64,000 bases of DNA from an uncultured virus (IMG/VR IMGVR_UViG_3300021964_000019) (Duplodnaviria; Heunggongvirae; Uroviricota; Caudoviricetes), in IMG/VR virus record IMGVR_UViG_3300021964_000019; one strand, given 5' to 3'. Both the position numbers and the translations under genes were made by a program. Below the pieces are notes generated by a model. The model was not told the origin of the DNA. It worked only from the letters and a program-made list of their open reading frames with translations, and searched no databases. Position 1 is the stretch's first letter. Every line of letters begins with the position of its first letter. Positions 5,721 through 52,314 of this stretch are shown one piece after another.

Positions 5721-5742
5721 GTATGAAAATGCTTTACAAACA

Positions 5743-6177: not shown

Positions 6178-6521
6178 AAGAACAGTTTAAAAAACATGCT
6201 GCAAAAGAATATCCAAATGAGTGTTGTGGTATTATAACAAAGAGCTTTGACTATATTCCTTGTAAGAACTTGAGTCGTGATCCTATAAATAGTTTTGTTT
6301 TAGACCCAATGGCATTAGTTCGTTACGAAGATGATTGTTGGGGGGTATTTCACTCTCATCCAGATGATGAACCTACTCCTTCTGTTTTAGACGGACATAA
6401 GATAGCTAATGAGGAGTATAACTATTTAGTTGGTTGGGAAGATGATATATATCTATATTGGTTCGATAAAGATCTACAAAGCACAAGATTTAAACCTTTA
6501 GAAGAAGAGATGTTAAGATGA
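6156..6521 (+). CDS. JAB/MPN metallopeptidase (gpK N-domain-like)
   Basis: EYPNECCG and VFHSHP...PSVLD JAMM motif. Confidence 0.88.
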   Translation: MEKLQLLKEQFKKHAAKEYPNECCGIITKSFDYIPCKNLSRDPINSFVLDPMALVRYEDDCWGVFHSHPDDEPTPSVLDGHKIANEEYNYLVGWEDDIYLYWFDKDLQSTRFKPLEEEMLR

Positions 6522-7198: not shown

Positions 7199-9747
7199 AG
7201 ATTTATGAAGTAAGCGGTTATAAAGGAGGAAAGGGTGGTGGAGGCGGAGCCACTGAGGTAGATAATAATCTATTCTCTCAAGATATCATGCTTATGACAG
7301 CAGGATTAAGTGAAGGGCCTATATATAGAATTAACCCTAACAGTATTTTTGATATTGAAATAAACGAATCAGTAGTTGATGCCTTCATTGATTTTGATTC
7401 AGGTAATCAGAAAACAGAGGATTTTGTCACAGATTCTCGTGTAGGTACTGTAAATCAAACAGCAATTCCACTATTTGGAGAAGAAACTACTCAACCACAG
7501 AACTTTGCCTCTGCTGTATTATTAAAAAAAGGTAATCTTGATGGAGTGCCTGCAACTAAAGTAGAATTACAAGAAACTTCAGCTTTTGCATGGGATTCAC
7601 TTCGTTTTAAATTTGTATTAAATGCTTTATCTAATATGGATGAAAAAGGTAATGTTAAAAATCATTCTGTTAGTATTCGTATAACAGTATTTAAAAGCGA
7701 TGGAGTAACTCTTGCGGCGGATCCAGTAGATAGAACTATTAGAGGAAAAACAAACACTCCATATAAGTTTGATGTAGAAGTTACGATTCAAAACTATGAT
7801 ACTGGAGGGTATAAGTTTACTATTGAAAAAACCAGCAATGATAGTGAAAGCTCTCGTATAGTAGACGGTATTTCAGCTGTAGCTTGGTTAGAGATTGATC
7901 ACGATCCTGTAGCCTATCCAAGAACAGCTGTAATCGGATATTCACTTGCAGCCCATAATGAATATCAAGGAGCGGTGCCTCGTTTTACTTCTATAGTTAA
8001 GGGGTTGTTGGTTAAGGTTCCTTCAAACTATGATCAACCTATTTTACAAAATGGAGAAATCGATTGGAGAGAGATTGAAACTCCTGCTTCAGGGCAATAT
8101 AGTTATGGGATAACAGGTTATAGACAAACTAGTACAGATAGTACAGTAAAATATTCCCAACCTACAATATACAGAGGAGTATGGGACGGTACTTTTAGAT
8201 ACTCATGGACACAGAATCCTGTTTGGATTATCTATGATTTATTAACTAATGATACTTATGGATTAGGTATTAATGAAGAAAACATAGATAAGTATAAATT
8301 TTACGAAGTAGCACAATACTGTGACGCTTGTGATCCTATAACAGGAAAATTTGTTGGAGTTACTGGTAAAGCAGATGGCAGCTATAGATATAAACCAAGA
8401 ACCTACTATGCTAGCCCAAGACAAACACTAGAAGGACTGCCTGTAGGAACTGATGTAAAAGAAAGAAGATTTATTTTAGATGCTATTATTTCTAATAGTG
8501 GAAAAGCTTTTGATATATTAGAACAAGTTTGTGCAACAATGAGAGCCATTTTAATATATACTCCAAATGGTTTATCTATGAATATTGATATGCCTAATGA
8601 AGTACCTTCAATGATATTTAATGAGGCTAATATTCTAAAAGAGTCATTTACTATTAGCGGCACAAGCGAATCTGCACAAATAACAGGAGTTGATGTAACC
8701 TTTATAGAGCCTAATAATCATTATAATAGAGAAACAATGAGAATTGATGATGATAAAGCTCTTCGTGAAAGAAATATGATTGAAAATGTTTCTTCTGTAG
8801 ATTTGTTTGGAGTTACTCGCAGAAGTCAAGCTATTCGTTTTGCACAATACTTACTAGCATCTAATAAGTATTTAAGAAGAAATATTACTTTTGGTACAGA
8901 TATTTCTGCTATAGATTTAATTCCAGGAGATATTATTGCTGTTCAACAAAAACAAACAGGAACTTCTTGGGGTTATGGTGGTAAGGTAAGAGCTAATACT
9001 TCATTATCAACATCAAATGTATATATTGAACACTTTTCAAGCCCTGCTATTACAAATAACACTATTACAGCTAATACACTGCCTTTGGCACTTAGAATTA
9101 CAAAACAAAACTCGGATCGTACTGATTTATATATCTTATCTAATACAAACTTTCAATCTGGTACAACTACTTATGTTAAAAATATACATAAAGGAACTTA
9201 TGCAAACGGTCAAAATTATCAAACAACTGAAGTAGCAAATCAAAATGTAAGTTCTGGATTAGACTTTATAGATTTTGTAGCAACTAGTAAGTTTGATTTA
9301 TCTACTAAAACGTTTCAATCTTTTTCTGGTTTTGATGCTAATACTGCTCCTGTAAAAGGAGATGTTTGGACACTAGGAGAGACTAATCCTTCTGATTTCT
9401 ACTCTAATACTTCAGATAAATTATTTAAGATTACTGAAATTAAAAGAGATGGCGAAGAAGTAATTAAAATCAGTGCGATGGAATATATATCAAATGTATA
9501 TACGGATTCTGAAACGGAAATAGCCTATCTTCCTGTACAGTATAAGCCTACATTTAGTCCTCTTAAACCTCCTGTAGCACCAAATTTAAATACAGAGTTA
9601 GTTGTGAGAAAAAATGAAGATGGCACTGTAAGATATGATTTATTAGTGTCAGACGCTACTAACTTAACCGATTATCCAATTCATGTAGCTACAGAATATC
9701 AAATAGCTAGACCAGATGGATTTTCTGAAATAGAGGGCTTAACTTAA
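7195..9747 (+). CDS. Tail tip / host specificity protein J, N-terminal part
   Basis: KGGKGGGG start, LSEGPI, AYPRTA, VKVPSNYD, WDGTF...WTQNPVWIIYDLLTN..YGLG, AQYCD, GVTRRSQAIR motifs of gpJ. Confidence 0.9.
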   Translation: MKIYEVSGYKGGKGGGGGATEVDNNLFSQDIMLMTAGLSEGPIYRINPNSIFDIEINESVVDAFIDFDSGNQKTEDFVTDSRVGTVNQTAIPLFGEETTQPQNFASAVLLKKGNLDGVPATKVELQETSAFAWDSLRFKFVLNALSNMDEKGNVKNHSVSIRITVFKSDGVTLAADPVDRTIRGKTNTPYKFDVEVTIQNYDTGGYKFTIEKTSNDSESSRIVDGISAVAWLEIDHDPVAYPRTAVIGYSLAAHNEYQGAVPRFTSIVKGLLVKVPSNYDQPILQNGEIDWREIETPASGQYSYGITGYRQTSTDSTVKYSQPTIYRGVWDGTFRYSWTQNPVWIIYDLLTNDTYGLGINEENIDKYKFYEVAQYCDACDPITGKFVGVTGKADGSYRYKPRTYYASPRQTLEGLPVGTDVKERRFILDAIISNSGKAFDILEQVCATMRAILIYTPNGLSMNIDMPNEVPSMIFNEANILKESFTISGTSESAQITGVDVTFIEPNNHYNRETMRIDDDKALRERNMIENVSSVDLFGVTRRSQAIRFAQYLLASNKYLRRNITFGTDISAIDLIPGDIIAVQQKQTGTSWGYGGKVRANTSLSTSNVYIEHFSSPAITNNTITANTLPLALRITKQNSDRTDLYILSNTNFQSGTTTYVKNIHKGTYANGQNYQTTEVANQNVSSGLDFIDFVATSKFDLSTKTFQSFSGFDANTAPVKGDVWTLGETNPSDFYSNTSDKLFKITEIKRDGEEVIKISAMEYISNVYTDSETEIAYLPVQYKPTFSPLKPPVAPNLNTELVVRKNEDGTVRYDLLVSDATNLTDYPIHVATEYQIARPDGFSEIEGLT

Positions 9748-13111: not shown

Positions 13112-14410
13112 ATGTCAAACGAACAGTTTTTATTGCCTGCTTTTGCTAGAACTGTTGCTCTGTCAAGAAATGACTTTAATACTAGTTTAAGAGCAATCAG
13201 TAGAAACTTCTATGGCGAAGAGCAACCGCTAGGCGCAGATTTTAATGATGAAGGCACAGTTGGAACTGTTCCTAATGGAGTTTTTTGGAGATCTTCTAAA
13301 GGCGGTAGGCTATTTATCAAAGATGTAGCTAATGCAAAACCTCCTACAGGGTCTAATTGGCCTGGTAACAACTTCAGTCGTTATGGAATTGCACTAAGCT
13401 TTGTGGATACACTAGGAGGCGCAGATCAGCGCAATTATGAACTAGGAGAATTAGTAGCTGTAGTAAACTCAAGTGATACAACACAGGCTTCTATCAGACG
13501 TGTATCAGAATCTGGTTTAGGTGCAGCGGCTAATAACCGTTTATACTTAAAAACCTCAAACGGTTCAGCTTCAACAGGTTTTATTGATGTTGGTATTCCA
13601 TATCCTGGATCTGTTAAACCACATCATTTATATCTAGATGCAAAAGTAGAACCAATTACAGATAATACTGTTGATTTAGGAGACTGGTCATATCGTTATC
13701 GTGACGGTTACTTTTCTAATGCGGTGTTAATTGGTTCTTCATCAGCGCACATTGCTTTAAATGCGACTGATGGATTTTTACAACTAGACGGTGTTCAGTT
13801 TGCTAACGGAACTGCTGCTGATCCATCAATTACTTTTGAGTCAGATACTAATACAGGCATATTCCGTGAAGGATCAGACGATATTGGATTTACTGCTGGC
13901 GGTACAAAACGCATGAGCATTGATACAAACTCTGTTGACTTTGCTGTTAACCTACTACCAACTACAGCAACAATTGATGTCGGAGCCTCTGGTAGTCAGT
14001 TTAGAAATATGTATGCGAGTGGTGAGTTTTTTGGTACAGCTACCACTGCAAAATATGCTGACTTGGCAGAAAAATACTCCACAGATGAAGAGTATCCAGT
14101 TGGAACTATTATGATGGTATCTACGCTCTCACTCTTTGAGACAGAGGCTTGTACTGAAACAGGAGTTCCTATCGGTGTTGTATCAGAGTATCCAGCATTT
14201 AAGATGAACTCTGATTCAGAAGGTCAATATCTCGGCTTAAAAGGTCGTCTACCGATTCGTGTAGTAGGCGAAGTAAAAAAGGGAGATAAAATTTACACTA
14301 CATATACTGGAGTTGGAAAAGCAAGCGGATCAGGATCTCTTGTAGGAATTGCATTAGAATCTAACTCTATAGAAGGAGAAAAGCTAGTTGAGTGTGTGCT
14401 AAAAGTTTAA
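13112..14410 (+). CDS. Tail fibre / receptor-binding protein with C-terminal chaperone-like domain
   Basis: GTAADPSITFESDTNTGIF fibre motif; AKYADLAEKY...YPVGT...GVVS...GLKGRLPIRVVG resembles autocleaving intramolecular chaperone domains; SD AAGGAG. Confidence 0.72.
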   Translation: MSNEQFLLPAFARTVALSRNDFNTSLRAISRNFYGEEQPLGADFNDEGTVGTVPNGVFWRSSKGGRLFIKDVANAKPPTGSNWPGNNFSRYGIALSFVDTLGGADQRNYELGELVAVVNSSDTTQASIRRVSESGLGAAANNRLYLKTSNGSASTGFIDVGIPYPGSVKPHHLYLDAKVEPITDNTVDLGDWSYRYRDGYFSNAVLIGSSSAHIALNATDGFLQLDGVQFANGTAADPSITFESDTNTGIFREGSDDIGFTAGGTKRMSIDTNSVDFAVNLLPTTATIDVGASGSQFRNMYASGEFFGTATTAKYADLAEKYSTDEEYPVGTIMMVSTLSLFETEACTETGVPIGVVSEYPAFKMNSDSEGQYLGLKGRLPIRVVGEVKKGDKIYTTYTGVGKASGSGSLVGIALESNSIEGEKLVECVLKV

Positions 14411-14453: not shown

Positions 14454-14648
14454 ATGAAAAAGAAAAAAGGAAAATTCACTTTTACAAGACCGCCATCTCC
14501 TCGAATTGCACGAGATGAAAAGACAAGACGCAGAGCCGTTTCTGGCGTCTTGACTGAGGCACAACTAGAGTCATTTATCTCTCGCGCACGAGACAAAGGA
14601 TGGTCAGTAAAGTATTCTAAACCAATTGGATTTAAGAGGAAAAAATGA
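14454..14648 (+). CDS. Small basic hypothetical protein
   Basis: 64 aa, Lys/Arg-rich, ATGA overlap with next gene. Confidence 0.6.
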   Translation: MKKKKGKFTFTRPPSPRIARDEKTRRRAVSGVLTEAQLESFISRARDKGWSVKYSKPIGFKRKK

Positions 14649-14986
14649 AAAAAGATGGACACACAGATGTAGCATCGTCTCGTAGAATGGTTCAAGCTAT
14701 CTGCGAAGATGCTCAAGACATTTTAAAAGCGCTACCACAAGACGCAGAAGCTGAACTACCAACCTGGTGGACAAACAAGCTTGCTGTGTGTAGCGCCTAC
14801 TTAAACTCAGCAAGAGACTATCTACTCTATTCTGACGACATTGAAGTCGAAACATCAGAAGAAGAAGAGGATGGTGAGCCTTTTACCCTAACTATTAGTG
14901 ATGATGACTTGTCAAAAGAGATGAGTGAAGAAGATCTAATTGAACTAGTTGTGGAGCTTGATGAAGATGCCCCTACAAACAGGTAA
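14645..14986 (+). CDS. Hypothetical protein with acidic C-terminal tail
   Basis: SD GAGG; LPTWWTNKLA helix; Glu/Asp-rich tail. Confidence 0.7.
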   Translation: MKKDGHTDVASSRRMVQAICEDAQDILKALPQDAEAELPTWWTNKLAVCSAYLNSARDYLLYSDDIEVETSEEEEDGEPFTLTISDDDLSKEMSEEDLIELVVELDEDAPTNR

Positions 14987-15167
14987 GAACGCTTTAGGTA
15001 AAAATATTAAAGAGTTGATGCGCAAAAAACCATCCAAAAGTCGTGACAAAGCAATTCGCACTATGGCTGCCAAATCAGGCACAACGTACAAAAAGGCTCG
15101 CCAAAAGCAGGCGATTGCGATTGCCTTATCAGCAGCCGGAAAGAGTAAGCGAAAGCGTAAAAAATAA
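14967..15167 (+). CDS. Small basic hypothetical protein
   Basis: MPLQTGK...KQAIAIALSAAGKSKRKRKK; SD GGAG at 14953. Confidence 0.65.
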   Translation: MPLQTGKNALGKNIKELMRKKPSKSRDKAIRTMAAKSGTTYKKARQKQAIAIALSAAGKSKRKRKK

Positions 15168-15178
15168 AATTTTTCTGT

Positions 15179-15362
15179 TTGTCAACTATCGAAATTTGTG
15201 TTACTATTAGTTTGAACTTAGATGCAATCAATATAAAATATCATTTTTACTTAATTGAACATAGAATGAACATGGCTTTCCGCTATGTTGCAACTACCTG
15301 CCACGGAGTGGCACAACGCGGAGACGGAGTCTCCGCTATTTTATTACCGTCACACTTGTGAC
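15179..15362 (+). promoter_or_regulatory. Promoter + AT-rich tract + three hairpins (candidate origin or structured ncRNA/leader), element A
   Basis: TTGTCA-N17-TACTAT (15179-15207); hairpins TGCCAC-GGA-GTGGCA, GCGGAGAC-GGA-GTCTCCGC, GTCACA-CT-TGTGAC. Confidence 0.55.
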
Positions 15363-15380
15363 TTAATTTTGGAGGTTATT

Positions 15381-15557
15381 ATGGCTAAACATAAAAAAAT
15401 GCCGATGAAGAATGGTAAACCAGCTTTTATGGCTAAAAACAGTTCTAAAAAAGCTGATGCTAAGAAAAAAGTAAACGGTGGAGGTTTGTCTGCGGCACAG
15501 AAGAAACTACCTCCTGCACTACAGAAAGCAATTTTAGCTAAAAAGAAAAAGAAGTGA
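15381..15557 (+). CDS. Small Lys-rich hypothetical protein
   Basis: SD GGAGG before MAKHKKMPMK; LSAAQKKLPPALQKAILAKKKKK. Confidence 0.75.
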   Translation: MAKHKKMPMKNGKPAFMAKNSSKKADAKKKVNGGGLSAAQKKLPPALQKAILAKKKKK

Positions 15558-16159
15558 ATACAGAAGACGAAGTATGGGCAACGTTATCTCCAGAGCATAT
15601 ATGGATATATGACAAACTCATACTTTCTAAAAAACTAGGGTATACGTGTGGCCCCGTAGGAATTGATGTTCCACAACCAGGATGGTATATTGTTAGACCT
15701 ATAATGAATTTAATAGGTTTAGGTTATGGAGCAGAACGTATTTGGATAGAAAAAGACACTGACGATTTACCAATAGGATATTTCTGGTGTGAGTGGTTTG
15801 AAGGAAGACATTTATCTGTAGACTACTATAAGAAGAATATTACTCTATGTGTTGAAGGGTTTAAAGATCCTGAAGAGTTAATGTACTGGGATGCATGGAG
15901 TAAAGTAGATGATCTCCCAGCTTTAGAGAGAATATTGAGGTTTCCAGATCTACTTAATGATATACCGTATGAATATGTAAACTGTGAGTTTATAGGTAAT
16001 AAGTTAATTGAGTGTCAACTTAGACGTAATTTAGACTTTCAGTGGGACAACGAAGATTTTGTTCCTGTATGGCAGGATGAAAATACAGAACCACCAGAAG
16101 GTTGGAGATATGTTGATCATCCAGATTTGCATGGTAGAATAGGAGCATTTATAAAGTAA
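15554..16159 (+). CDS. Putative minimal ATP-grasp fold protein
   Basis: YDK..LSKKLG, YIVRP..NL.GLG.G, FWCEWFEGRHLSVD, NCEF....LIECQLR in ATP-grasp motif order. Confidence 0.55.
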   Translation: MNTEDEVWATLSPEHIWIYDKLILSKKLGYTCGPVGIDVPQPGWYIVRPIMNLIGLGYGAERIWIEKDTDDLPIGYFWCEWFEGRHLSVDYYKKNITLCVEGFKDPEELMYWDAWSKVDDLPALERILRFPDLLNDIPYEYVNCEFIGNKLIECQLRRNLDFQWDNEDFVPVWQDENTEPPEGWRYVDHPDLHGRIGAFIK

Positions 16160-16623
16160 TGATTGATAGCATTACCAAAGGTATTGGAGTTGTGACAGCA
16201 ACATTTGCTCTAATCGGAGGCGGTTACACTTTATATGATAAGCTAGGCATAGAAGATCCTATTCTTACTTGGGCTCCTGAACATTTTCAAATAACTGACG
16301 GCCCTGTAAATGGTGAATTCAAAGTTGAGGTTGCAAGAGAAAAACATAGAGATGACTGTACTGTAGAAGACTTTGTTCTTGATGTAAGAGATAGTGAACA
16401 TATTGTTCATCCTGCAAAACCAAGTATTACTAAATTTATGGGACCCGCAACAGATAAAGTAGATACTTTTGCATATAAAATTACCATTGATGAACATCAT
16501 CAAAACAAAGTAGCAGAAGGTTTAGCAACACTAATTGCTTATATACATTATGATTGTCCTGAAGGTAAGGTTGTAGTAAACTATCCAGACCATGATAATC
16601 TAAGATTTAATATAACAAAATAG
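16159..16623 (+). CDS. Membrane-anchored hypothetical protein
   Basis: N-terminal hydrophobic helix, beta-rich domain with two Cys. Confidence 0.65.
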   Translation: MIDSITKGIGVVTATFALIGGGYTLYDKLGIEDPILTWAPEHFQITDGPVNGEFKVEVAREKHRDDCTVEDFVLDVRDSEHIVHPAKPSITKFMGPATDKVDTFAYKITIDEHHQNKVAEGLATLIAYIHYDCPEGKVVVNYPDHDNLRFNITK

Positions 16624-16631
16624 GAATTGAT

Positions 16632-16814
16632 ATGCCAAAGAAAACTAAATCTAAAGTTAATCAAGCAGGTAATTATACAAAACCTACTATGAGAAAACAA
16701 ATCTTCCAAAGAATTAAGCGAGGATCTAAAGGCGGCGCACCTGGACAATGGAGCGCTAGAAAAGCCCAAATGCTGGCTGTTGCTTATAAAAAAGCTGGCG
16801 GAGGTTATAGATAA
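16632..16814 (+). CDS. DUF5872-like protein, N-terminal half
   Basis: NYTKPTMR.....IK.GSKGG.PGQWSARKAQMLA..YKKAGGGY. Confidence 0.65.
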   Translation: MPKKTKSKVNQAGNYTKPTMRKQIFQRIKRGSKGGAPGQWSARKAQMLAVAYKKAGGGYR

Positions 16815-17065
16815 TGGCAAAGAAGCCTTCTCAACAATCTTTAGTAAATTGGACTCGTCAAGAATGGGGTTACTCTTCAAAAGGCGAAGAGAAAAAACCT
16901 CGTAAGAAACGTGGTAGATATTTACCAAAAGCTGCTTGGCAATCACTTTCTCCTAGTGAGAAGCGTGCTACTAATGCCGCAAAGCGTAAAGGCTCAAAGT
17001 CAGGAAAACAATTTGTAAAACAGCCTAAAAAAATAGCTAAGAAAACAAGATCATATAGAAAATGA
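16814..17065 (+). CDS. DUF5872-like protein, C-terminal half
   Basis: QQSL..WT.QEW...RYLPKAAWQSLS..EKRATN..KR.G...GKQFV; TAATG coupling. Confidence 0.6.
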   Translation: MAKKPSQQSLVNWTRQEWGYSSKGEEKKPRKKRGRYLPKAAWQSLSPSEKRATNAAKRKGSKSGKQFVKQPKKIAKKTRSYRK

Positions 17066-17083
17066 AATAAAGGATGGTATATT

Positions 17084-17245
17084 ATGATTAATTGGATTAA
17101 AAATAGAATTAGTGAAAGAACTTCTTGGGATGGTGCAATGCTTATAGCTGTAGGAGTTGTTTCTTTATTATTTCAATCACTAATGGGATGGGCTGCTTGG
17201 GCAGCAATCATATGGGGAGCTTGGACAGTTATAAAATCTGAGTGA
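17084..17245 (+). CDS. Small 2-TM membrane protein, holin candidate (not in ORF track)
   Basis: 53 aa MINWIKNRISERTSWDGAMLIAVGVVSLLFQSLMGWAAWAAIIWGAWTVIKSE; SD AAGGA. Confidence 0.6.
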   Translation: MINWIKNRISERTSWDGAMLIAVGVVSLLFQSLMGWAAWAAIIWGAWTVIKSE

Positions 17246-17269
17246 TAACTTATAATAGGATGGTACTGG

Positions 17270-17809
17270 ATGAAAAAATTAATATTCTTATTGCTATTTA
17301 GCTATAGCAGTTTTGCGTTCGCAGAAACAATTGTAACAGAGTCTACTACAAATAGTACAGTTACAACAAATGGAGAAATGACTACAACAGTTAAATCTCC
17401 TCCGCCCTCAGCAATTTCACCACAATTTAGTTCTGGAAACAATAGCGATTTATGTACAATCGGTGTTGCTGGAGCTGTTCAAACTCAAATCTTAGGCATT
17501 TCTGCCGGTACTACTTTTACAGAAGAAAACTGTATTCGTCTTAAAAATGCGAAGACACTATACGATATGGGCATGAAAGTTGCTGCTGTTTCTGTCATGT
17601 GTCAAGATAAACAAGTATTTGACGCTATGATGATGGCAGGAACACCGTGTCCTTATGAAGGGCAGATTGGTGAGGCTGCAAAGATTGGTTGGGAATCTCA
17701 TGTAGCAGACGATAAGCATGAAATGAACGGCACAGGAGAAAAAATTGATGTTAAGGAAAAAGCTACTTACGGTGGTATTGGTTTGCTTACCCTCTTATTG
17801 CTACTCTGA
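17270..17809 (+). CDS. Exported protein with 4 Cys, amphipathic beta-hairpin and hydrophobic C-terminal anchor
   Basis: Signal peptide ending AFA; GVAGAVQTQILGISAGTT; tail GGIGLLTLLLLL. Confidence 0.7.
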   Translation: MKKLIFLLLFSYSSFAFAETIVTESTTNSTVTTNGEMTTTVKSPPPSAISPQFSSGNNSDLCTIGVAGAVQTQILGISAGTTFTEENCIRLKNAKTLYDMGMKVAAVSVMCQDKQVFDAMMMAGTPCPYEGQIGEAAKIGWESHVADDKHEMNGTGEKIDVKEKATYGGIGLLTLLLLL

Positions 17810-18638
17810 GAGTATAACTTCTTATTACGGTACTACAGGAAACGCTGCAGGATCAGGTTTAAATTGGTCTATGAATAATATTTTACCGACACCGCCTGGA
17901 TTAGACATTAACGGAGTAATTTATAATTACACAATTCAAAAAGATGTTGATGATTCAGTAAACGTTCACATTCAAAATGAAAACGCTAATGGCACTGGTT
18001 ATATATTTAGAGAGACAGATGAGTGGAATCCGGGATCTCTTGGTGGTACAGAAATTAGAAAAGTTGTCCCCGTTATTCCAAATATCCCAAGACAGTCTTG
18101 GGGTGATGGGTCTATTGAAGTAGAAGGTAGTGGCTCTGTTACAGATCCTAGTGTGGTTTATATGTATAAGGTAGATCCTTGTTATGACCCACAATTTGAT
18201 CCTAACTGTCCAGGGTATAAGGTTCCAGTACCAGAAATACCAGTTATCGATGTTAGTATTATATATAATGCTTCTGAAGATGAAGCTGTGCAAATAGCAA
18301 CTACAGAAACTGATACAGAATTATATGAAGAAACAGAGACTAAGATTGAAGACGAAGAAGAGGATGAAGATAAAAAAGAAATGAGACTTGAAGAAGCTCT
18401 TTCAGCGGCAGATACTTCTGCACTATTTGCCGAAGCTCTAGCACAGTCTCAAATATTAGCGGCAATCAACATAGCCGTTCAAATAAATCCATATTATGCT
18501 GCCAGCATTCCTGGCGGAGTGTATAAAGAAACTATAGTATTGGTCGATAAGAAGATAGAGGATAATAAGCAGGGATTGAGGAATGGCCTTGCACAACAAT
18601 TATTGCATGAAAAAATGATTGAAATGCAGTATGATTAG
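17748..18638 (+). CDS. Exported protein (beta domain, DPCYDPQFDPNCPGY motif, acidic linker, helical C-terminus)
   Basis: SD AGGAG at 17734; signal peptide-like N-terminus. Confidence 0.65.
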   Translation: MLRKKLLTVVLVCLPSYCYSESITSYYGTTGNAAGSGLNWSMNNILPTPPGLDINGVIYNYTIQKDVDDSVNVHIQNENANGTGYIFRETDEWNPGSLGGTEIRKVVPVIPNIPRQSWGDGSIEVEGSGSVTDPSVVYMYKVDPCYDPQFDPNCPGYKVPVPEIPVIDVSIIYNASEDEAVQIATTETDTELYEETETKIEDEEEDEDKKEMRLEEALSAADTSALFAEALAQSQILAAINIAVQINPYYAASIPGGVYKETIVLVDKKIEDNKQGLRNGLAQQLLHEKMIEMQYD

Positions 18639-18648
18639 GAGAATAATA

Positions 18649-19149
18649 ATGAAAAAATATTTAATTATATTAGGACTATTAACTTTTAGTGTTTCTGCCT
18701 ACGCAGAAAATGTTCCTATTCAAGGAACAGTACAATCTAGATGTGTTATTTCTGTAGACACCCCGGGTGTTTATGGAAACCCAAATGCCTATACTCTAAC
18801 AACAACAGCTACAGATGGTGGTGTACAACCTATTGTTAGATATGATGTAACTCTTGCTGATGCCTATTATGCTCAGATTACAACTCCAACTGAGTTTTCA
18901 TCTAGCCCATCTTTAAGTGATACAGTTACGTGGACTGGTTCAACAGAAGTAAGTTCACTAAGTGATGCTACAGGCATGGGGTCATATGAAACAAATAAAA
19001 CTACATTTGGTCAAACAACTCAGTACGATTTAACCGCAACAGGATCTACTTGGTTTAAATCAAGTTCAAGCGCGACTTATGGAGGTAATAAAGCATTTCC
19101 AGGAGGCACTTATACTGCGCACGTAGAAGCTGTATGTATTGCCCAGTAA
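18649..19149 (+). CDS. Fimbrial (chaperone-usher type) pilin-like exported protein
   Basis: Signal peptide ending AYA; N-terminal V.IQGTVQSRC.I and C-terminal GTYTAHVEAVC alternating strand; Thr/Ser-rich all-beta. Confidence 0.55.
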   Translation: MKKYLIILGLLTFSVSAYAENVPIQGTVQSRCVISVDTPGVYGNPNAYTLTTTATDGGVQPIVRYDVTLADAYYAQITTPTEFSSSPSLSDTVTWTGSTEVSSLSDATGMGSYETNKTTFGQTTQYDLTATGSTWFKSSSSATYGGNKAFPGGTYTAHVEAVCIAQ

Positions 19150-19150
19150 A

Positions 19151-19525
19151 ATGAAAAGACTTTTATTACTTCTAATATTCTTAATAATTCCTTTCTCTGT
19201 GATAGCACATGAAATGGTACCTACATATCCAAAATGGAGACTATCATACATTGAAGATCTTTTAGTCACAGAGATGGAAATGTTTAATAAAAGAGCTGAC
19301 GTTAAGTATTATGAAGTAGCAGTTTTTGATGAAGACTGGAACCCTATTCCTTTTGTAACTTCTTATAGAGTAATAAAAGTTGATTATTTATCAAGAGTAA
19401 AGTTTGATGTTTATATAAGAATACAAGATAAAGATAGGGCAAAATATATTTGTTCTAGGTCAAAACTAACAGATAATAAAGGTAGTGGTATATCTTCTAT
19501 GATATGCTCTAAGTTTAAGGAGTAA
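19151..19525 (+). CDS. Exported Ig-like protein, PapD-N pilus chaperone-like
   Basis: Signal peptide; MEMFN...YYEVAVFDEDWNPIPF...RVKFDVYI pattern; C-terminal Cys pair. Confidence 0.45.
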   Translation: MKRLLLLLIFLIIPFSVIAHEMVPTYPKWRLSYIEDLLVTEMEMFNKRADVKYYEVAVFDEDWNPIPFVTSYRVIKVDYLSRVKFDVYIRIQDKDRAKYICSRSKLTDNKGSGISSMICSKFKE

Positions 19526-19526
19526 G

Positions 19527-19928
19527 ATGAAAAAGATTATTTTACTACTATCACTTATCCCTTCCTTAGCTTTAGCAGAAAACAGTTCTTTGAATTTAGC
19601 CCTTCCTTCTACTCCTAGCACTTATGGTCAAGATAGTTTTAAATCTGGAGAAATGGATTGTAAAAATGCTATCGGAGGTTCAACAAATTTTGAATTTGGA
19701 GTGACGGGAATTATTGATAATTATGAAAGCCCATTTAGTAACAGTTCTGGGAATAGTTCAAAAGATGTAGGTGTATATGCAAGAATCACCATTCCTTTAG
19801 ATGCTCCAAAAGAAAGAGTTAATTGTAATACTCTTTACCAACTTGAGTTAAAAAGAAAAAGGTTAGAGATTCAAAAACTTGAACAAGAGTTGGCAAGGCT
19901 TAGAGCTTTGTCAGAAGAAGGTAAATAA
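19527..19928 (+). CDS. Exported protein with beta-hairpin and coiled coil (possible oligomeric pore subunit)
   Basis: Signal peptide ending ALA; strands NFEFGVTG and VGVYARITIPL bracketed by two Cys; C-terminal coiled coil. Confidence 0.55.
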   Translation: MKKIILLLSLIPSLALAENSSLNLALPSTPSTYGQDSFKSGEMDCKNAIGGSTNFEFGVTGIIDNYESPFSNSSGNSSKDVGVYARITIPLDAPKERVNCNTLYQLELKRKRLEIQKLEQELARLRALSEEGK

Positions 19929-19930
19929 TA

Positions 19931-20221
19931 ATGGATATAATTTTAGATAATAATGTAAATCAAGTAGCAAAAGATTGTTTAGATGCTTTTGGGTATGATA
20001 GAAATTTACCTGTAGAAGAACGATTCATAGATTTTCCTTTTAATGAAGCAGCTGACTGCTTAACAAATACTAAAATATATGGATTATACATTCCTCAACT
20101 TGAAGCAACAAGAGAGTTTTTAGAACAAAATCCCGGATGGAAAGTGCCTGGAGGCAGTATTAGACATGTTGACCCTTGTTGGGGTAAAGTTCGTAAATAC
20201 CACACAGATGGAGGATGTTAA
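19931..20221 (+). CDS. Hypothetical protein
   Basis: 96 aa ORF in tight operon. Confidence 0.55.
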   Translation: MDIILDNNVNQVAKDCLDAFGYDRNLPVEERFIDFPFNEAADCLTNTKIYGLYIPQLEATREFLEQNPGWKVPGGSIRHVDPCWGKVRKYHTDGGC

Positions 20222-20439
20222 TGAGTGATTGGAATCAAGATCATTTCTACACAGATAATTATAAAAAAATAATGTTAGGATTAGGTATTTTTGTGGCTCT
20301 TGCTTTTGGATATATTACTTTTTTGTATTTTGAGTATAGAGTAGAAATAGCTCTTTGGGAAACTACTTTTGTATCACCTGCTCATTTTTGGAGTCAAGTA
20401 CCTGATTGGGAATGGAGACCGGTATGGCAAAAGACTTAG
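20215..20439 (+). CDS. Small membrane protein
   Basis: One TM helix, Trp-rich C-terminus; SD GGAGG. Confidence 0.55.
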   Translation: MLMSDWNQDHFYTDNYKKIMLGLGIFVALAFGYITFLYFEYRVEIALWETTFVSPAHFWSQVPDWEWRPVWQKT

Positions 20440-20996
20440 GACAAGAACTTGAAAATATGGAAGAAGGTATTGAGAACCTTAAGAATAAAGAGTTCCGAAT
20501 TCTTGGTATTAAAGTAACCTTTATGAGTGTATCAGCACTTGTTGCTGTGCTTGGTTCAGTTCTTGGTGCGCTTTATGGTGGATTTCTAATGTATCAAAAG
20601 GTAGAAGAAGTAGCTGGTCTCGATATTGGTGCGTTTGAACAGCGCATGGAAGTGATAGAGACTAAACTTGATGAAGCTGTTGACTATACAAGAGATATTA
20701 AAGGCGATTTACGAGATGATATTCTTGCTATTGAAAAAACTGCTGATCGTGTAGAGGATGAAGTAAGAAAAATTGAAGGCGAAGTTCGCTCAATCGTGCA
20801 AAATGCCGAAGAGCGCTTTGAGAATAAACGTGATAGACTGCAAGTTGATTATGACGAAAAAGCGAATAGACTACAATCATCAAATCAAAGCCGTATGGAT
20901 GACTTAGAGGCAAAAGTAGAACGTGAACTAAAAGATTTAGAAGATCGTCTTAATAAGAAATTACAAAGAGCCTTAGACAATCCTTTAGCTAATTAG
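20424..20996 (+). CDS. Membrane-anchored coiled-coil protein
   Basis: TM helix followed by long heptad coiled coil; SD GGAG at 20414. Confidence 0.75.
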   Translation: MAKDLGQELENMEEGIENLKNKEFRILGIKVTFMSVSALVAVLGSVLGALYGGFLMYQKVEEVAGLDIGAFEQRMEVIETKLDEAVDYTRDIKGDLRDDILAIEKTADRVEDEVRKIEGEVRSIVQNAEERFENKRDRLQVDYDEKANRLQSSNQSRMDDLEAKVERELKDLEDRLNKKLQRALDNPLAN

Positions 20997-21009
20997 GGAG
21001 AAAGATAGG

Positions 21010-21483
21010 ATGGATCCGGTTAGTGCATTAGCAACAGCAAGTGCAGCATTTAATGTTATTAAAAAAGGATTTGAAGTAGGAAGAGATATAGAACAGATGG
21101 CTGGAGATTTAGGTCGTTGGATGTCTGCTATGTCTGATTTATCTGAAGCAGAGCGTCAAGCTAAGAATCCTCCACTTTTCAAAAAACTTATGTTCAAAGG
21201 TTCTGTCGAAGAAGAAGCGATGGCCACATTTGCTGCAAAGAAAAAAGCAGAACAGATGAGAGAAGAGCTTAAGCAATATATTTCATGGACAATGGGACAA
21301 AAAGCTTGGGATGAACTTATTCGTATGGAAGGACAAATTAGAAAAGAACGTCAAGAGACTATATATAAACAATCACAAAAAAGACAAAAATTTATTGAGT
21401 GGGTGTGTATCGGATTAGCTTGTACTATTGGTTTAAGTCTTTTAGGATTTTTTGTTTATATTCTTAAAGGATTAAGTGGATGA
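21010..21483 (+). CDS. Hypothetical protein with C-terminal TM helix
   Basis: MDPVSALATASAAFN N-terminus, helical body, hydrophobic C-terminus. Confidence 0.75.
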   Translation: MDPVSALATASAAFNVIKKGFEVGRDIEQMAGDLGRWMSAMSDLSEAERQAKNPPLFKKLMFKGSVEEEAMATFAAKKKAEQMREELKQYISWTMGQKAWDELIRMEGQIRKERQETIYKQSQKRQKFIEWVCIGLACTIGLSLLGFFVYILKGLSG

Positions 21484-21716
21484 TAGATACGTTAAGACTA
21501 CGAGTAATTCAGATGAGAGAACTACATGATTTACCAGAACCTTATGGAGATTTAGAAGATAAAGTAAATAGAATTAAATCTGATATATTTTTATTCAAAG
21601 CAAAAAACTCCTACTTATATTCTGAAGAGTCTGCTAAAAAGATAAAAACAACAGAAAAAGGAAAACCTAGTCTTTCAGATAAACTTCAAAGTTTACAAGC
21701 TAAGGGCAAGTCATAA
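21480..21716 (+). CDS. Hypothetical protein
   Basis: ATGA overlap with upstream gene. Confidence 0.55.
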   Translation: MIDTLRLRVIQMRELHDLPEPYGDLEDKVNRIKSDIFLFKAKNSYLYSEESAKKIKTTEKGKPSLSDKLQSLQAKGKS

Positions 21717-21734
21717 TAATTTTAAATTAAATAT

Positions 21735-21763
21735 TTGTCAGCTGCTACAAAATAATACATAAT
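21735..21763 (+). promoter_or_regulatory. Sigma70-type promoter, probably leaderless
   Basis: TTGTCA-N17-CATAAT; ATG 21770 lies 6 nt after the -10 with no SD. Confidence 0.55.
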
Positions 21764-21769
21764 ATTAAT

Positions 21770-22015
21770 ATGAGAATAAGAAGAAAGGTAACAAACGGAA
21801 CCAAAGCTTGGGAAAGAGTTGGATCAGATGTTAGAGCATTTGATCGACCTTCTTTGTGTACTTTTTACACACCTGCGGGAAGAATGGTTACGAGGCCTCA
21901 TAGAGGAAGACCTTCTGGTTCAGGATTAACTGATGAAGAATGGTGCGCCTACTATACACCATTTAAGAATCAAGCAATTAATAGAAAACAATTCTATAAT
22001 AGAAAAAGGAGATAA
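21770..22015 (+). CDS. Small Arg-rich hypothetical protein
   Basis: 81 aa basic ORF. Confidence 0.6.
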   Translation: MRIRRKVTNGTKAWERVGSDVRAFDRPSLCTFYTPAGRMVTRPHRGRPSGSGLTDEEWCAYYTPFKNQAINRKQFYNRKRR

Positions 22016-22017
22016 AA

Positions 22018-22311
22018 ATGGCTGCAAGAATGAAGTCCGTCAGTGGACAAACTAGAGATTATTTTGACTCTTATAAAAAAACTCCAGGTGGAGGAACAAA
22101 TAAGAGCGGTATTAATTCAAATGAAAAATTGAAAAAAGCACCTTTTGGAAGTTCTGGCATGAGTGCTCCTGTTAAAGACAGAGTATCAGCTATGGAACCA
22201 CAGTACGGACTATCTCAAGGTCCTAAAGGTGGTAGAGTTAACAAAACTGGGCGTAACATGGGTGGAAATGGTAAAGGTAAATTTCCTAACATGGTAAAGG
22301 ACATGAAGTAA
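22018..22311 (+). CDS. Basic Gly/Lys-rich, probably disordered protein
   Basis: SD AGGAG; low-complexity composition. Confidence 0.7.
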   Translation: MAARMKSVSGQTRDYFDSYKKTPGGGTNKSGINSNEKLKKAPFGSSGMSAPVKDRVSAMEPQYGLSQGPKGGRVNKTGRNMGGNGKGKFPNMVKDMK

Positions 22312-22312
22312 A

Positions 22313-22597
22313 ATGGCTGAAAAATACGCTGGACCTAAAAGAGAATCTTTTGAGAAACGCTTAGCCCGTTCAAAAGAACTTCAGGGTAATGGCGAGATTA
22401 AGACTATTGGCGATAGAGTTTATAGATTTATTGGTCAGAATGAAATTAATAAACAGACCGAAGAAGCTATGAAATATGATGAAGCCAATAAGTATTATGA
22501 AAGAAAATCCCAGATAGAAAATATAAAAAACGTGGGAGAATTTTCCTCAGCTACAGGTTCTATATATAATCCAAAAGTTGTTAAATATTCAAAATAA
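22313..22597 (+). CDS. Hypothetical protein
   Basis: 94 aa ORF, 1 nt after upstream stop. Confidence 0.65.
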   Translation: MAEKYAGPKRESFEKRLARSKELQGNGEIKTIGDRVYRFIGQNEINKQTEEAMKYDEANKYYERKSQIENIKNVGEFSSATGSIYNPKVVKYSK

Positions 22598-22623
22598 ACT
22601 TTTGAATGTTGTAAACCTTTTAA

Positions 22624-22664
22624 ATAGAGGAACTGTCTCTACGACAATTCCTCTATATTTTTTT
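22624..22664 (+). terminator. Intrinsic terminator
   Basis: ATAGAGGAACTGTC-loop-GACAATTCCTCTAT followed by T run. Confidence 0.65.
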
Positions 22665-22674
22665 GGAGAAGACA

Positions 22675-22821
22675 ATGGATATTACAAATGTAGATGCTTT
22701 TAAGTCTAACTATGGCTTAAAAAAGAAAAAGAAACAGAAAGTTAAAATTAGAACTCTTAAGAAAAGCTCCGGTTTTTCCCATGGAATTGCTAATGCACCT
22801 ATTCGCAAAAAAGTGAGGTAA
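22675..22821 (+). CDS. Small Lys-rich protein (not in ORF track)
   Basis: 48 aa MDITNVDAFKSNYGLKKKKKQKVKIRTLKKSSGFSHGIANAPIRKKVR; SD GGAG. Confidence 0.55.
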   Translation: MDITNVDAFKSNYGLKKKKKQKVKIRTLKKSSGFSHGIANAPIRKKVR

Positions 22822-22822
22822 T

Positions 22823-23986
22823 ATGCCTTTAGCTAATGTTCATTACGATATGTTCACAGCAAAGCAGGGAGTAACCCGTGCAGGTAATGTTACGTGGTCT
22901 GGTGCTTGGGCTAACAATTCTTTAGGAGTTAAGACTAATAGTGTTCAATTAAGAACCTATGTTTCTGGAGATACTAATAGTGCTGTATTATATCCTCCAG
23001 CAGGGCGTGCCACATCTTATGGTCCTTTTATAGAGAGGACTTTTCAAGGAGATGGTTATGGATATATTGCAGGAGGCGCACAAACATCAGGTACTACTCC
23101 TCATGAGCAAATATGGGGCATGGGAGTAGGACCAACTAGTGACACCATTCAAAAATTCCCACTCTCATCTGATTTAGGAATAACAGATGTAGGTAATTTA
23201 ACCCAAGGAAGGCACGGTACTTCTAGTACAGCTAGTAAAACCCATGGTTATACTGCAGGAGGTTATTTATATCCCACTACAGCTTCTTCAAATATTATAG
23301 AAAAATATCCTTTTTCCTCTGATACTGATTCTACTGATGTAGGAGATTTAGCTGTAACTAGATCTTATACTGGTGGGACTTTTAGCCCTACAGATGGTTA
23401 TGCTATGGGTGGTCAAAACTCTACAGGAGTACCTAGTCCTACAATAAGATATACTAATATAGATAAATATCCTTTTTCTTCTGACACAAACGCTACTGGA
23501 ATTGGTAACCTAACTGAAGGTAAAATGTCGCCTGCTGGTCATGCTAGCACTACTCATGGATATAGCTCAGGAGGTGAACTAAATCCAGGAGAATCTACTC
23601 GTATAGATAAATTTCCCTTTTCTACAGATACGCCGATTAGTTATATAGCAGATATGACTATCGGAAAAACTAGCGCTGCAGGAATATCTAGCCCTACCAA
23701 TGGATATTCTCTATCTGGGTTTACAGGATCAGGATCATCTACTGATGTTGTAGATAAATTTCCTTTTACTTCTGACGCAAATTCAACAGATATAATGGAG
23801 CTTGCAGTTGCAGGTGATAATGGGACTGGAATTTCTTCTACAGAAAGAGGGTATCATATGCCTGCTCCAAATAACGGAACAGGAGCTAATTTATATTATT
23901 TCAACTATTCTAGCGATACAACTCATAGTCCAAGAACACAAGGACTAACCGTAGCAGTTTCAAGAACTTCAGGTACGCAAGTATGA
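22823..23986 (+). CDS. Kelch-like beta-propeller repeat protein (probable virion protein)
   Basis: About six ~48 aa repeats GY..GG...IDKFPFSSD.N.TDVG.LT..R. Confidence 0.7.
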   Translation: MPLANVHYDMFTAKQGVTRAGNVTWSGAWANNSLGVKTNSVQLRTYVSGDTNSAVLYPPAGRATSYGPFIERTFQGDGYGYIAGGAQTSGTTPHEQIWGMGVGPTSDTIQKFPLSSDLGITDVGNLTQGRHGTSSTASKTHGYTAGGYLYPTTASSNIIEKYPFSSDTDSTDVGDLAVTRSYTGGTFSPTDGYAMGGQNSTGVPSPTIRYTNIDKYPFSSDTNATGIGNLTEGKMSPAGHASTTHGYSSGGELNPGESTRIDKFPFSTDTPISYIADMTIGKTSAAGISSPTNGYSLSGFTGSGSSTDVVDKFPFTSDANSTDIMELAVAGDNGTGISSTERGYHMPAPNNGTGANLYYFNYSSDTTHSPRTQGLTVAVSRTSGTQV

Positions 23987-25002
23987 CACTACGTAAATTT
24001 AACTTTAGATCTTTGAAAGTAGAAAATGTTACCGCAGGATCAAATGTTGTATTTGGTACTGCTAATGTTAGTTCTTCTGTTAGTAATACAACTATCGGGT
24101 TTGTAACAGGGTGGCCTAGTGCTTATCATCCTCCGCCACCGCCACCTCACTATCAAGGAAGTGTAGCTGGTTACTCATCAGGCGACTTAACCACTGATAA
24201 ATTTCCTTTTACATCTGATACTGATGGTTCACTTGTTGGAAACTTATCAGTGCAGAGAATTTTTGTTACTGGACAGTCTTCTTCTACACATGGATATACT
24301 TCAGGAGGTTCTGAAGGAGCAACATATTATAATATAATCGACAATTTTCCTTTTTCTTCTGATACTAATTCAACAGATGTTGGAGATTTATCCACTGTAA
24401 GAAGAGGCGGAGCAGGGTCTTCTTCTGAGTCAAACGGTTATAATACCGGGGGAAATACTGGTACTCCTGATTCTCCAACAGGCACAACAGTTATTGATAA
24501 ATTTCCCTTTAGTGCTAACTCTCCCGCTACTAATATAGCAAGTTTAGTAAATTCGGTGAGAATTGCAGCAGGTCAAAATTCTTCTACACATGGATACTCT
24601 TCTGGAGGATTTCCTTCACCGTCTTTATATATTCAAAAATACTCATTTGCTTCTGATGGAAACGCTACATCTGTTGGAAATTTAACAGCTGCACGATATA
24701 ATATGACAGGACAGTCTTCTGACACACACGGATATACAGCAGGAGGTAGTTCGCCAACAAATAGAATTGATAAATTCCCTTTTGCTTCTGACACTAATGC
24801 TGCTACTGTAGGCAGTTTAGTAGGCACAAGGTTTGGTCATGCAGGACATTCTTCTACTACATTTGGTTATGTTTCTTCAGGACAGACTCCATCATATAGT
24901 ACAGAGATTGAAAAATTTCCATTTTCTTCAGATACTAACTCCGCTTTAGTTGGAGATGTTGCTAACATTCATGAAAGTGGAGTAGGCGGAACTCAAGTAT
25001 AA
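23983..25002 (+). CDS. Kelch-like beta-propeller repeat protein, paralog of upstream gene
   Basis: Same repeat, poly-Pro linker, shared C-terminal GTQV. Confidence 0.7.
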   Translation: MTLRKFNFRSLKVENVTAGSNVVFGTANVSSSVSNTTIGFVTGWPSAYHPPPPPPHYQGSVAGYSSGDLTTDKFPFTSDTDGSLVGNLSVQRIFVTGQSSSTHGYTSGGSEGATYYNIIDNFPFSSDTNSTDVGDLSTVRRGGAGSSSESNGYNTGGNTGTPDSPTGTTVIDKFPFSANSPATNIASLVNSVRIAAGQNSSTHGYSSGGFPSPSLYIQKYSFASDGNATSVGNLTAARYNMTGQSSDTHGYTAGGSSPTNRIDKFPFASDTNAATVGSLVGTRFGHAGHSSTTFGYVSSGQTPSYSTEIEKFPFSSDTNSALVGDVANIHESGVGGTQV

Positions 25003-28320: not shown

Positions 28321-28725
28321 TTACCTATTAAATCTTAAGTTATATTTTTTTCCATTTGACCAAAAAGTAACAGTGCTGTGACTATATACTTCTTTAGTTT
28401 CTTCTTGGTATCTAGTTTCTAATTGACATTGTTTTTGAATACTGTCTTTTGCATCGCTATTTTGATTAGCAATAATACCACCAAGCAATGCACCAACAGC
28501 TCCGCCATTGTCTACATTTTTAGTAACGTTATTACCAATTGCTCCGCCAATAATTGCACCCATTAGGGTATCTTTAGTTTTATCTCCTGATACTACTACA
28601 TCTTTGCATATTTCAACAGTATAAGGTTTTTGTTCTATAATTGTTTTATAATGGTCATTAATAACAGCATCTTCTGCTAATGCAGGAGATGATATTAATA
28701 ACCCTACCATAAGTAATTTTTTCAT
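28321..28725 (-). CDS. Exported glycine-zipper 2TM protein
   Basis: Signal peptide; GAIIGGAIG...GAVGALLGG; Cys pair; SD AGGAG. Confidence 0.8.
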   Translation of the reverse strand: MKKLLMVGLLISSPALAEDAVINDHYKTIIEQKPYTVEICKDVVVSGDKTKDTLMGAIIGGAIGNNVTKNVDNGGAVGALLGGIIANQNSDAKDSIQKQCQLETRYQEETKEVYSHSTVTFWSNGKKYNLRFNR

Positions 28726-28733
28726 AATATCTC

Positions 28734-50976: not shown

Positions 50977-51014
50977 GTTTTCCTTTCTTGAAGAGCAAAT
51001 TCAACTTTTAATAC

Positions 51015-51157: not shown

Positions 51158-51158
51158 A

Positions 51159-52313: not shown

Positions 52314-52314
52314 T

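Follow-up and report, generated by a model that had tools for sequence, protein, structure and literature searches.

A cassette of six genes in a Caudoviricetes genome (uncultured virus, IMG/VR record IMGVR_UViG_3300021964_000019) combines two separable modules of predicted envelope proteins, and one of these, a trio of small proteins with export signals, is a self-contained three-gene system common to phages and some Pseudomonadota. We analysed 64,000 nucleotides of this genome (hereafter, the window), which are the reverse strand of positions 65120-129119 in a single-contig virus record of 173,519 bases, and we name the genes by their first position in the window (Table 1). The trio comprises 18649, 19151 and 19527, which encode a subunit-like beta-sandwich, a single immunoglobulin (Ig)-like domain that we call a half chaperone, and a third small protein with a C-terminal heptad helix. 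The second module, termed module D, consists of 17270 and 17745 together with 20406. No usher was found in the genome. Our working account, which we hold tentatively and with a confidence that stops a little short of even, is that two envelope modules share one operon, that the trio is an usher-less strand-complementation system, and that the whole set remodels the host envelope around lysis.

Six genes in conserved order, five with export signals

Two scans of viral contigs yielded 157 loci, some of them on contigs entered under two ids and many cut at contig ends, and the presence of each gene was determined by tblastn of 26 window proteins against these loci. Matches were obtained in 151 loci for 17270, 154 for 17745, 145 for 18649, 143 for 19151, 139 for 19527 and 131 for 20406; with the exception of 21010, each flanking gene was found in at most 17. 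When duplicates were removed and only loci with at least 4.6 kb of room were kept, 78 distinct loci remained. All six genes are present in identical order in 77 of them, the sole exception being one locus that lacks 20406. This arrangement is far beyond chance, and the co-conservation on which an earlier reading of the DNA letters alone (the sequence-only reading) depended is thereby borne out. That reading had also described an operon of five exported proteins followed by a coiled-coil protein. The five genes stand, but the coiled-coil gene 20406 is not directly next to them, since 19931 and 20215 intervene; the gap between 19527 and 20406 exceeds 300 bases in 18 of the 77 six-gene loci. The genes overlap or are 1-13 bases apart, the cassette lies on the same strand as the tail genes, and no terminator-like site was found on the + strand from 15362 to 21822. 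The cassette appears to be common in marine phages, given that more than 550 viral stretches encode the 17270 family and that the 18649 family comprises 3767 clusters at 90% identity, all of them without names.

Signal peptides were scored with a crude in-house rule and not with SignalP. The N-termini of 17270, 17745, 18649, 19151 and 19527 each show one or two basic residues, a hydrophobic run and a small-x-small site, with predicted cleavage (at the slash) of AFA/E, CYS/E, AYA/E, VIA/H and ALA/E, respectively. Among 49 relatives per family, the rule was positive for 46 (17270), 48 (17745 and 18649) and 49 (19151 and 19527), and for 7 in the case of 20406. Genome-wide, 18 of 204 open reading frames (ORFs) were positive, and the five cassette genes are consecutive. 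Each of the five proteins also has conserved cysteines: C62, C88, C111 and C127 in 17270 (invariant or nearly so), C146 and C155 in 17745 (conserved at 90% or more), and invariant pairs in 18649 (C32 and C163, its only two cysteines), 19151 (C101 and C119) and 19527 (C45 and C100). No lipobox was found in the module proteins. The description of five adjacent proteins with Sec-type signal peptides and paired cysteines has therefore held up well, and these features support the prediction that the five proteins are exported and disulfide-bearing.

Database comparisons gave few names. None of the cassette proteins is explained by a sequence match in Pfam, NCBIfam or the PDB: an NCBIfam scan of 25 phage and bacterial members returned nothing useful, and PDB profile searches with five cassette-family alignments (A1-A5) were empty. 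In tblastn searches of a phage collection no match was obtained for 18649, 17745 or 20406, and their relatives in isolates were reached via profile comparison or neighbouring genes. A genome-collection scan with one narrow pattern (A2) found only four contigs of metagenome-assembled genomes (MAGs), from unrelated taxa. We found no description of the cassette in the literature on phage-encoded chaperone-usher and PapD-like proteins, usher-less systems and pelagiphage lysis, and a preprint on envelope proteins of huge phages never mentions pilin, chaperone, PapD, usher or fimbria.

The trio without module D

Weak relatives of 19527 occur in 69 Vibrio phage records of approximately 120-129 kb. 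In one of these phages, Bennett, 18649, 19151 and 19527 correspond to gp148, gp149 and gp150, respectively. Bennett gp148 aligns with 18649 over its full length (hhalign E 3.2e-9), and the three proteins match PHROGs 25895, 25455 and 37374, the latter two also being matched by 19151 and 19527, respectively; the N-termini of the three Bennett proteins are signal-like after start-codon correction. No tblastn match to 17270 was found in the trio-carrying Vibrio phages. In turn, the 17270 core domain was detected by tblastn in 13 phage records (Pelagibacter, Roseobacter, Ralstonia and uncultured phages) in which tblastn with 18649 gave no match.

The trio is also carried by bacterial chromosomes. 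We searched 401 genomes of the Pseudomonadota, the phylum of a cassette-holding MAG (G001), using a profile (A7) that includes distant relatives; these genomes are a sample, and the frequencies are rough. Eight matched, namely G001 itself, one with a 35-residue fragment and six with the trio, i.e., 6 of 400 sampled chromosomes apart from G001. Five related genomes (6-7 Mb, locus G+C approximately 62-63%) encode subunit, half chaperone, third protein and a second subunit consecutively, with 66-88% identity among them, while a 2.9 Mb genome (locus G+C 67-68%) has the plain trio. The neighbours are housekeeping genes (Ada-type methyltransferase, ribokinase, amidase, Xer-type recombinase and DedA-family protein), and no usher adjoins the bacterial trios. 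Of the three proteins, 19527 gives the clearest direct tblastn matches between the phage and bacterial versions (E 3e-14 to 4e-9 for the window protein against the bacterial third gene), and 18649 is related to the chromosomal subunit genes. The presence of the trio in bacteria points to a broader role in the envelope. As for G001, a bin labelled Rhodobacteraceae and the source of loci L170/L171, it has the subunit gene five times, each on a different contig (loci L173 and L175-L178), which suggests that these are several mis-binned phage contigs.

Because the trio-only systems found in Vibrio phages and in bacteria lack 17270, this protein cannot be a general export pore for the subunit. The proposal that it forms part of a subunit export machine, made in the sequence-only reading, thus fits 17270 poorly: it belongs to a separate module and is present without the trio in 13 phage records.

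Table 1. Genes of the cassette and its immediate surroundings (window coordinates; loci counts by tblastn)
Position	Strand	Assignment	Product	Further details
17270..17809	+	module D gene 1	exported (predicted), 179 aa	PHROG 20531 (unknown function)
17745..18638	+	module D gene 2	exported (predicted), 297 aa	likely start ATG 17748
18649..19149	+	trio gene 1	exported (predicted), 166-aa beta-sandwich 'subunit'	
19151..19525	+	trio gene 2	exported (predicted), 124-aa single-domain PapD/MSP-type Ig fold ('half chaperone')	PHROG 25455
19527..19928	+	trio gene 3	exported (predicted), 133 aa; C45-C100 pair, C-terminal heptad helix	PHROG 37374
19931..20221	+	inserted gene outside the conserved cassette	96 aa, 4 Cys, no signal peptide	16/157 loci
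20215..20439	+	inserted gene outside the conserved cassette	74 aa, one hydrophobic segment	10/157 loci
20406..20996	+	module D gene 3	N-terminal anchor and long charged coiled coil	likely start ATG 20424
21010..21483	+	loosely associated	157 aa, C-terminal hydrophobic segment	PHROG 32327; 43/157 loci

Properties of the trio proteins

The predicted structure of 18649 (predicted local distance difference test, pLDDT, 88.4) is a sandwich of approximately 10 strands, with C32 in the first strand (32-38) and C163 in the last (160-165). The N-terminal and last-strand motifs that had been likened to those of chaperone-usher pilins are present and conserved: I24, C32, G153, Y155, A161 and C163 are found in 49 of 49 sequences, G26 in 48 and V28 in 46. 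The N-terminal extension, P-I-x-G-x-V-Q-S-R/K-C, is unstructured in the monomer model. Residues 20-31, which include the nearly invariant I24, G26, V28 and S30, have no secondary structure according to DSSP, and 10-residue blocks over residues 1-30 have average pLDDT values of 61-67. A conserved but disordered N-terminus is as expected of a strand that folds only on a partner. In Foldseek searches the top rows are the pilin domains of PapG, FimG, CfaB and CsuA/B, but at E values of 0.011-0.09, and the best match in a BFVD fold search (E 7.8e-4) is to an uncharacterised protein. The case for 18649 as a chaperone-usher pilin is therefore weak: the motifs are sound, whereas the likeness to pilins is weak and the predicted disulfide joins the first and last strands. 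From the model, we call the protein a subunit-like sandwich and not a pilin. Its family is compact, with 124 representatives at 50% identity matching the profile. Nineteen of these have no Pfam match above the curated cut-off, and the names of 10 that were looked up are uninformative. Four candidates (P0204, P0220, P0236 and P0243) are repeat proteins that match over a short stretch only and were set aside.

For 19151, an AlphaFold model built with 49 relatives (pLDDT 89.7) shows a seven-strand sandwich of one domain. None of these relatives matched a Pfam family at E<=5. At E<=1e-3 Foldseek returned 48 matches in the PDB, and those ranked highest are MSP/VAP domains and N-terminal domains of pilus chaperones. 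The fold search values were 10.3 for SafB, 10.2 for FimC, 10.1 for YadV, 9.6 for CfaA, 9.2 for PapD and 8.8 for FaeE, CsuC and CupB2, compared to 7.5 for generic Ig domains at rank 50, and the chaperones SafB, FimC, PapD, DraB and Caf1M were among the best matches by two aligners. In the model, the fold is thus of the PapD/MSP type, with a modest margin over other Ig folds, in agreement with the suggestion that 19151 resembles a single N-terminal domain of PapD; a function cannot be read from a common fold alone. The model places C101 in strand 99-105 and C119 in strand 114-121, which are its last two, and a bond between them is inferred from this position. According to an excerpt of PMC4133393, a disulfide between strands F1 and G1 is a mark of FGL chaperones.

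In 19527, C45 and C100 bracket two amphipathic, strand-like stretches (residues approximately 55-63 and 81-91), which are followed by the heptad helix. The window protein has no match in Pfam, and two outer-membrane protein (OMP) beta-barrel families were each hit by one of 49 members, at E 0.04-0.07.

Properties of module D

The four cysteines of 17270 lie in a highly conserved core (residues approximately 44-141), and the protein ends in a short hydrophobic tail (GGxLxLLLLL). The stretch between C62 and C88 is rich in Gly and Ala and not plainly alternating. 17270 has no match in Pfam, and an Atlas search found only viral 'hypothetical' clusters (94-100% viral). 17745 has a beta-rich N-terminal domain, the C146/C155 pair, a linker that is Pro-rich and then acidic, and the conserved C-terminal motif LAQQLLHExMxxMQY; its Atlas entry is a poor model (pLDDT 0.48) with weak structure matches (TM <=0.42) and no usable feature match to a named cluster. 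20406 consists of a single hydrophobic segment (residues approximately 32-59) followed by a charged helical region, with an invariant Q..L.NPL motif at the C-terminus. We considered 20406 as a spanin and rejected this, since hhalign gave a probability of 3.5% against the genome's own Rz-like spanin and no Rz PHROG was matched.

The module is recognisable in cultured phages. Pelagibacter phage HTVC115P encodes, in this order, gp54 (similar to 17270, hydrophobic tail included), gp53 and, a few genes on, gp49. The latter is a clear homologue of 20406 (hhalign E 2.3e-28), and gp53 (466 aa, ending in ...LVDMQYR) has the C-terminal motif in common with 17745 (hhalign E 4.2e-5, probability 70%, 28 columns). 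Roseobacter phage CRP-810 has a corresponding gp53...gp51 arrangement, in which the N-terminal part of gp51 is homologous to 20406 (hhalign E 8.6e-9). The record names CRP-810 gp51 (L159:5213-5635) a 'lysozyme', while the protein is a 140-aa anchored coiled coil; given its relation to 20406, the annotation is probably wrong.

A usher-less assembly system as the favoured reading

With an E. coli control positive, the usher profile PF00577 matched nothing in the 173.5 kb genome at E<=1, and Pfam scans of the window and of the rest of the genome showed no usher either. Since the genome has a completeness rating of 100%, the absence of an usher, which the sequence-only reading had asserted, can be upheld.

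In the account that we favour, all three trio proteins would cross the inner membrane by Sec and be oxidised in the periplasm, where the half chaperone 19151 would hold the subunit 18649 through beta-strand complementation. The N-terminal I-x-G-x-V strand of 18649 could then be passed on to another subunit or to the third protein, and a short polymer or lattice would result. Because there is no usher, this polymer would stay in the periplasm or at the inner face of the outer membrane. 19527 may oligomerise via its helix and act as an anchor, and module D would provide two inner-membrane-anchored proteins and one long secreted protein that could span the periplasm. Expression of all these genes by the phage would most likely be late, so that the envelope is remodelled near the time of lysis.

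Several observations weigh against this account. The 18649 disulfide ties the first and last strands together, while chaperone-usher subunits carry an A-B disulfide (excerpt of PMC5625045), and the monomer model is a complete sandwich that includes the C-terminal strand. 19151 has one domain where pilus chaperones have two Ig-like domains, and the loop between its last two strands has approximately 8 residues (106-113), as opposed to approximately 24 in FGL chaperones. No sequence link to the PapD_N, Fimbrial or SCPU families was found even when 49 members were scanned one by one at E<=5, and the PDB profile searches were likewise empty. Late timing is deduced from gene position only: a scan for sigma-70-like promoters found 40 sites versus 40.0 +/- 5.7 in shuffled sequences, which is chance level, and the T4 late-promoter motif TATAAATA occurs 5 times, with 12 expected.

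A broader version of the same idea starts from the bacterial copies. The trio could be an undescribed usher-independent assembly system of diderm bacteria, made up of a subunit, a one-domain chaperone and a coiled-coil anchor or pore, which many marine and Vibrio phages have captured, some coupling it to the second module, for building an envelope polymer late in infection. Taken as a whole, we regard this version as doubtful but well worth considering.

Alternative explanations

The cassette could instead be a lysis accessory, i.e., a spanin- or antiholin-like periplasmic device that targets the outer membrane or influences when lysis occurs, with 20406 as the inner-membrane arm and the other proteins as exported partners. 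The topology of 20406 is that of an i-spanin, and several neighbourhoods fit. The Bennett trio ends three genes ahead of those for a holin (PHROG 860) and an M15 endolysin (PHROG 894), and the end of its third gene is overlapped by gp151 (L172:5221-5424), a 67-aa protein with a lipobox (LIISGC), much as in overlapped spanin pairs; gp151 has no counterpart in the window. In the podovirus MW202481, the 17270-like gene is approximately 2 kb upstream of a gene that is annotated as 'lysozyme' and has an N-terminal hydrophobic segment. We also scanned the flanks of 14 loci (139 ORFs of at least 330 bases, of 235 called; shorter ORFs and L153 were left out). Within 4.5 kb of the cassette, a cell-wall hydrolase (PF07486) is present in 5 of the 14 loci, an SNase nuclease in 3 and a class-3 lipase in 2, and a GTA-type holin directly follows the cassette in 1; the other flanking genes are metabolic, replication and structural ones. 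On the other hand, a cell-wall hydrolase is missing from the vicinity in 9 of the 14 loci, the bacterial trios lie among housekeeping and not lysis genes, and there is no lipobox in the modules. Moreover, the genome has its own lysis region approximately 55 kb from the cassette, with an endolysin (PF00959), an Rz-like spanin (PHROG 739, E 3.2e-8), an SNase and a class-3 lipase. Since these genes are so distant and 20406 is unrelated to that spanin, the link between cassette and lysis is suggestive, not compelling, and a lysis accessory is in our view unlikely, though not to be neglected.

A role in periplasmic binding or masking, by which 18649 would be a CBM2-type binder of glycans or envelope components and 19151 an Ig-like partner or histidine metal-binder, serving superinfection exclusion or receptor masking, seems distinctly unlikely. 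A disulfide that ties the N- and C-termini together, as predicted for 18649, is a trait of CBM2 domains; the first mature residue of 19151, His20, is invariant in the marine family; copper-protein domains (8aca, GbpA and the AmoB cupredoxin) are among its weaker fold matches; and the phage has many surface-sugar genes. The histidine, however, is not kept in the Vibrio phage and bacterial homologues, whose mature forms seem to begin with L, S or V, and exclusion genes are usually early, whereas the block sits among tail genes. We consider it very unlikely that 19527, with or without 17270, oligomerises into an outer-membrane pore that exports an 18649 polymer as a surface fibre. The alternating stretches between the invariant cysteines of 19527, and a heptad helix that could drive oligomerisation, are compatible with a pore, as is the absence of an usher, and in the self-contained bacterial trio the third protein is the sole candidate if anything crosses the outer membrane. 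Yet 19527 matches neither CsgG nor secretins nor OMP families of any kind, 17270 with its independent distribution fits poorly, and the idea requires a fibre while 18649 is itself only a putative fibre-former. That the proteins are virion or tail-fibre accessories is scarcely credible. The surroundings of the cassette do include a tail-fibre-like gene on one side (13112-14410; PHROGs 22593 and 19602) and the repeat proteins of 22823-25002 on the other, and upstream of it lie a tail assembly chaperone gene in locus L157 and a tail fibre gene in CRP-810; but five proteins have cleavable signal peptides and conserved cysteine pairs, the flanks differ between loci, and the bacterial trios have no phage genes around them.

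Comparison with known systems

The closest known counterparts of the trio are FGL chaperone-subunit pairs such as Caf1M-Caf1, SafB-SafA and DraB-DraE, which are periplasmic, Sec-exported and disulfide-bearing, as is predicted for the trio. The 19151 cysteine pair in the last two strands recalls the F1-G1 disulfide of FGL chaperones (excerpt of PMC4133393), and in both cases the chaperone gene adjoins that of a small beta-sandwich with an alternating N-terminal strand and a G-x-Y-x-A-x-V C-terminal strand. Unlike the FGL pairs, the trio has no usher, its chaperone has one domain and a short last-strand loop, it gives no sequence match to PF00345, PF00419 or PF05229, and its subunit disulfide is of the first-last and not the A-B type (excerpt of PMC5625045); the trio also needs a third, small coiled-coil protein and is carried by phages. 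Compared by description, the Elr/WxL pilus of Enterococcus is usher-free and chaperone-guided, but reportedly restricted to Bacillota, with a membrane-anchored chaperone and sortase anchoring, and archaeal cannulae and type V pili are donor-strand systems free of both usher and chaperone. For the trio, the host is diderm and polymerisation is putative. Rz/Rz1 spanins are, as predicted for the cassette products, periplasmic proteins that are exported or anchored; with its anchor and coiled coil 20406 is laid out like an i-spanin, and both modules adjoin lysis genes in cultured phages. In contrast to Rz/Rz1, the module has no lipoprotein partner and no homology to Rz families, and the Rz-like gene of the genome adjoins its endolysin. 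The likeness of 19151 to MSP/VAP domains is one of fold only, as these are eukaryotic cytosolic peptide-binding domains without signal peptide or disulfide.

If strand complementation is true, the trio would represent a minimal form of pilus-type assembly for Gram-negative envelopes that needs a single chaperone domain and does without an usher, and would parallel the usher-free Elr system just reported in Gram-positives. Given the abundance of its families, the cassette points to a common and unexplained action of marine phages on the host envelope. Both modules have cultured carriers: the trio occurs in 69 Vibrio phage records, and module D in phages of Pelagibacter and Roseobacter.

Genome setting and further observations

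The virus is a siphovirus-type phage. Lambda-like tail genes L, K, I and J lie at 4203-9747 of the window (Pfam, PHROGs), and genes for a tail tube, terminators, a 3775-aa tape-measure-like protein, a portal, a protease-capsid fusion and a large terminase are located outside it. The minus strand of the window carries replication and nucleotide genes and a long series of sugar-modification genes. G+C content is approximately 29-40%, and no tRNAs were found in the window. Near-identical DNA to window positions 16900-21600 was found mainly in estuary metagenome runs, which is a pointer to habitat only, and soil-labelled and salt-lake-labelled runs share 0.43-0.80 of the sampled words.

Around the cassette are at least eight small Lys/Arg-rich ORFs of 41-97 aa (window 14454-15557, 16632-17065 and 21770-22821; e.g., 16632-16814, MPKKTKSK...). 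They have no Pfam or PHROG matches and might encode DNA-binding or internal proteins. Directly upstream of the cassette, 17084-17245 encodes a 53-aa protein with two hydrophobic stretches that resembles a holin by size only; it is present in 17 of the 157 loci, and in L107, L143 and L153 its homologue instead lies a few kb downstream of the cassette. The position of 21010 relative to the cassette varies as well, and in some loci this gene is upstream. The tandem paralogues at 22823-25002 consist of repeats of approximately 45 aa (DKFPFSSDTNSTDVGDL...) and match PHROG 19111 (unknown function). Similar repeat proteins are encoded at the opposite end of the genome (L161:6238-9854, genome 6238-9854), and those of 22823-25002 are possibly propeller-like fibre or receptor-binding proteins.

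The lysis region of the genome occupies positions 50824-54098 (L163:12824-16098, minus strand), and by the in-house rule the N-termini of its spanin, nuclease and lipase are signal-like. In loci L107 and L109, an SNase and a lipase gene directly flank the cassette. A Gram-negative porin (PF13609, E 1.9e-32) is encoded approximately 1 kb upstream of the cassette on a 328 kb viral contig (L040:4457-5443). Finally, a glycine-zipper 2TM protein (PF05433) with a signal-like N-terminus is encoded at window 28321-28746, between the genes of both ribonucleotide reductase subunits.

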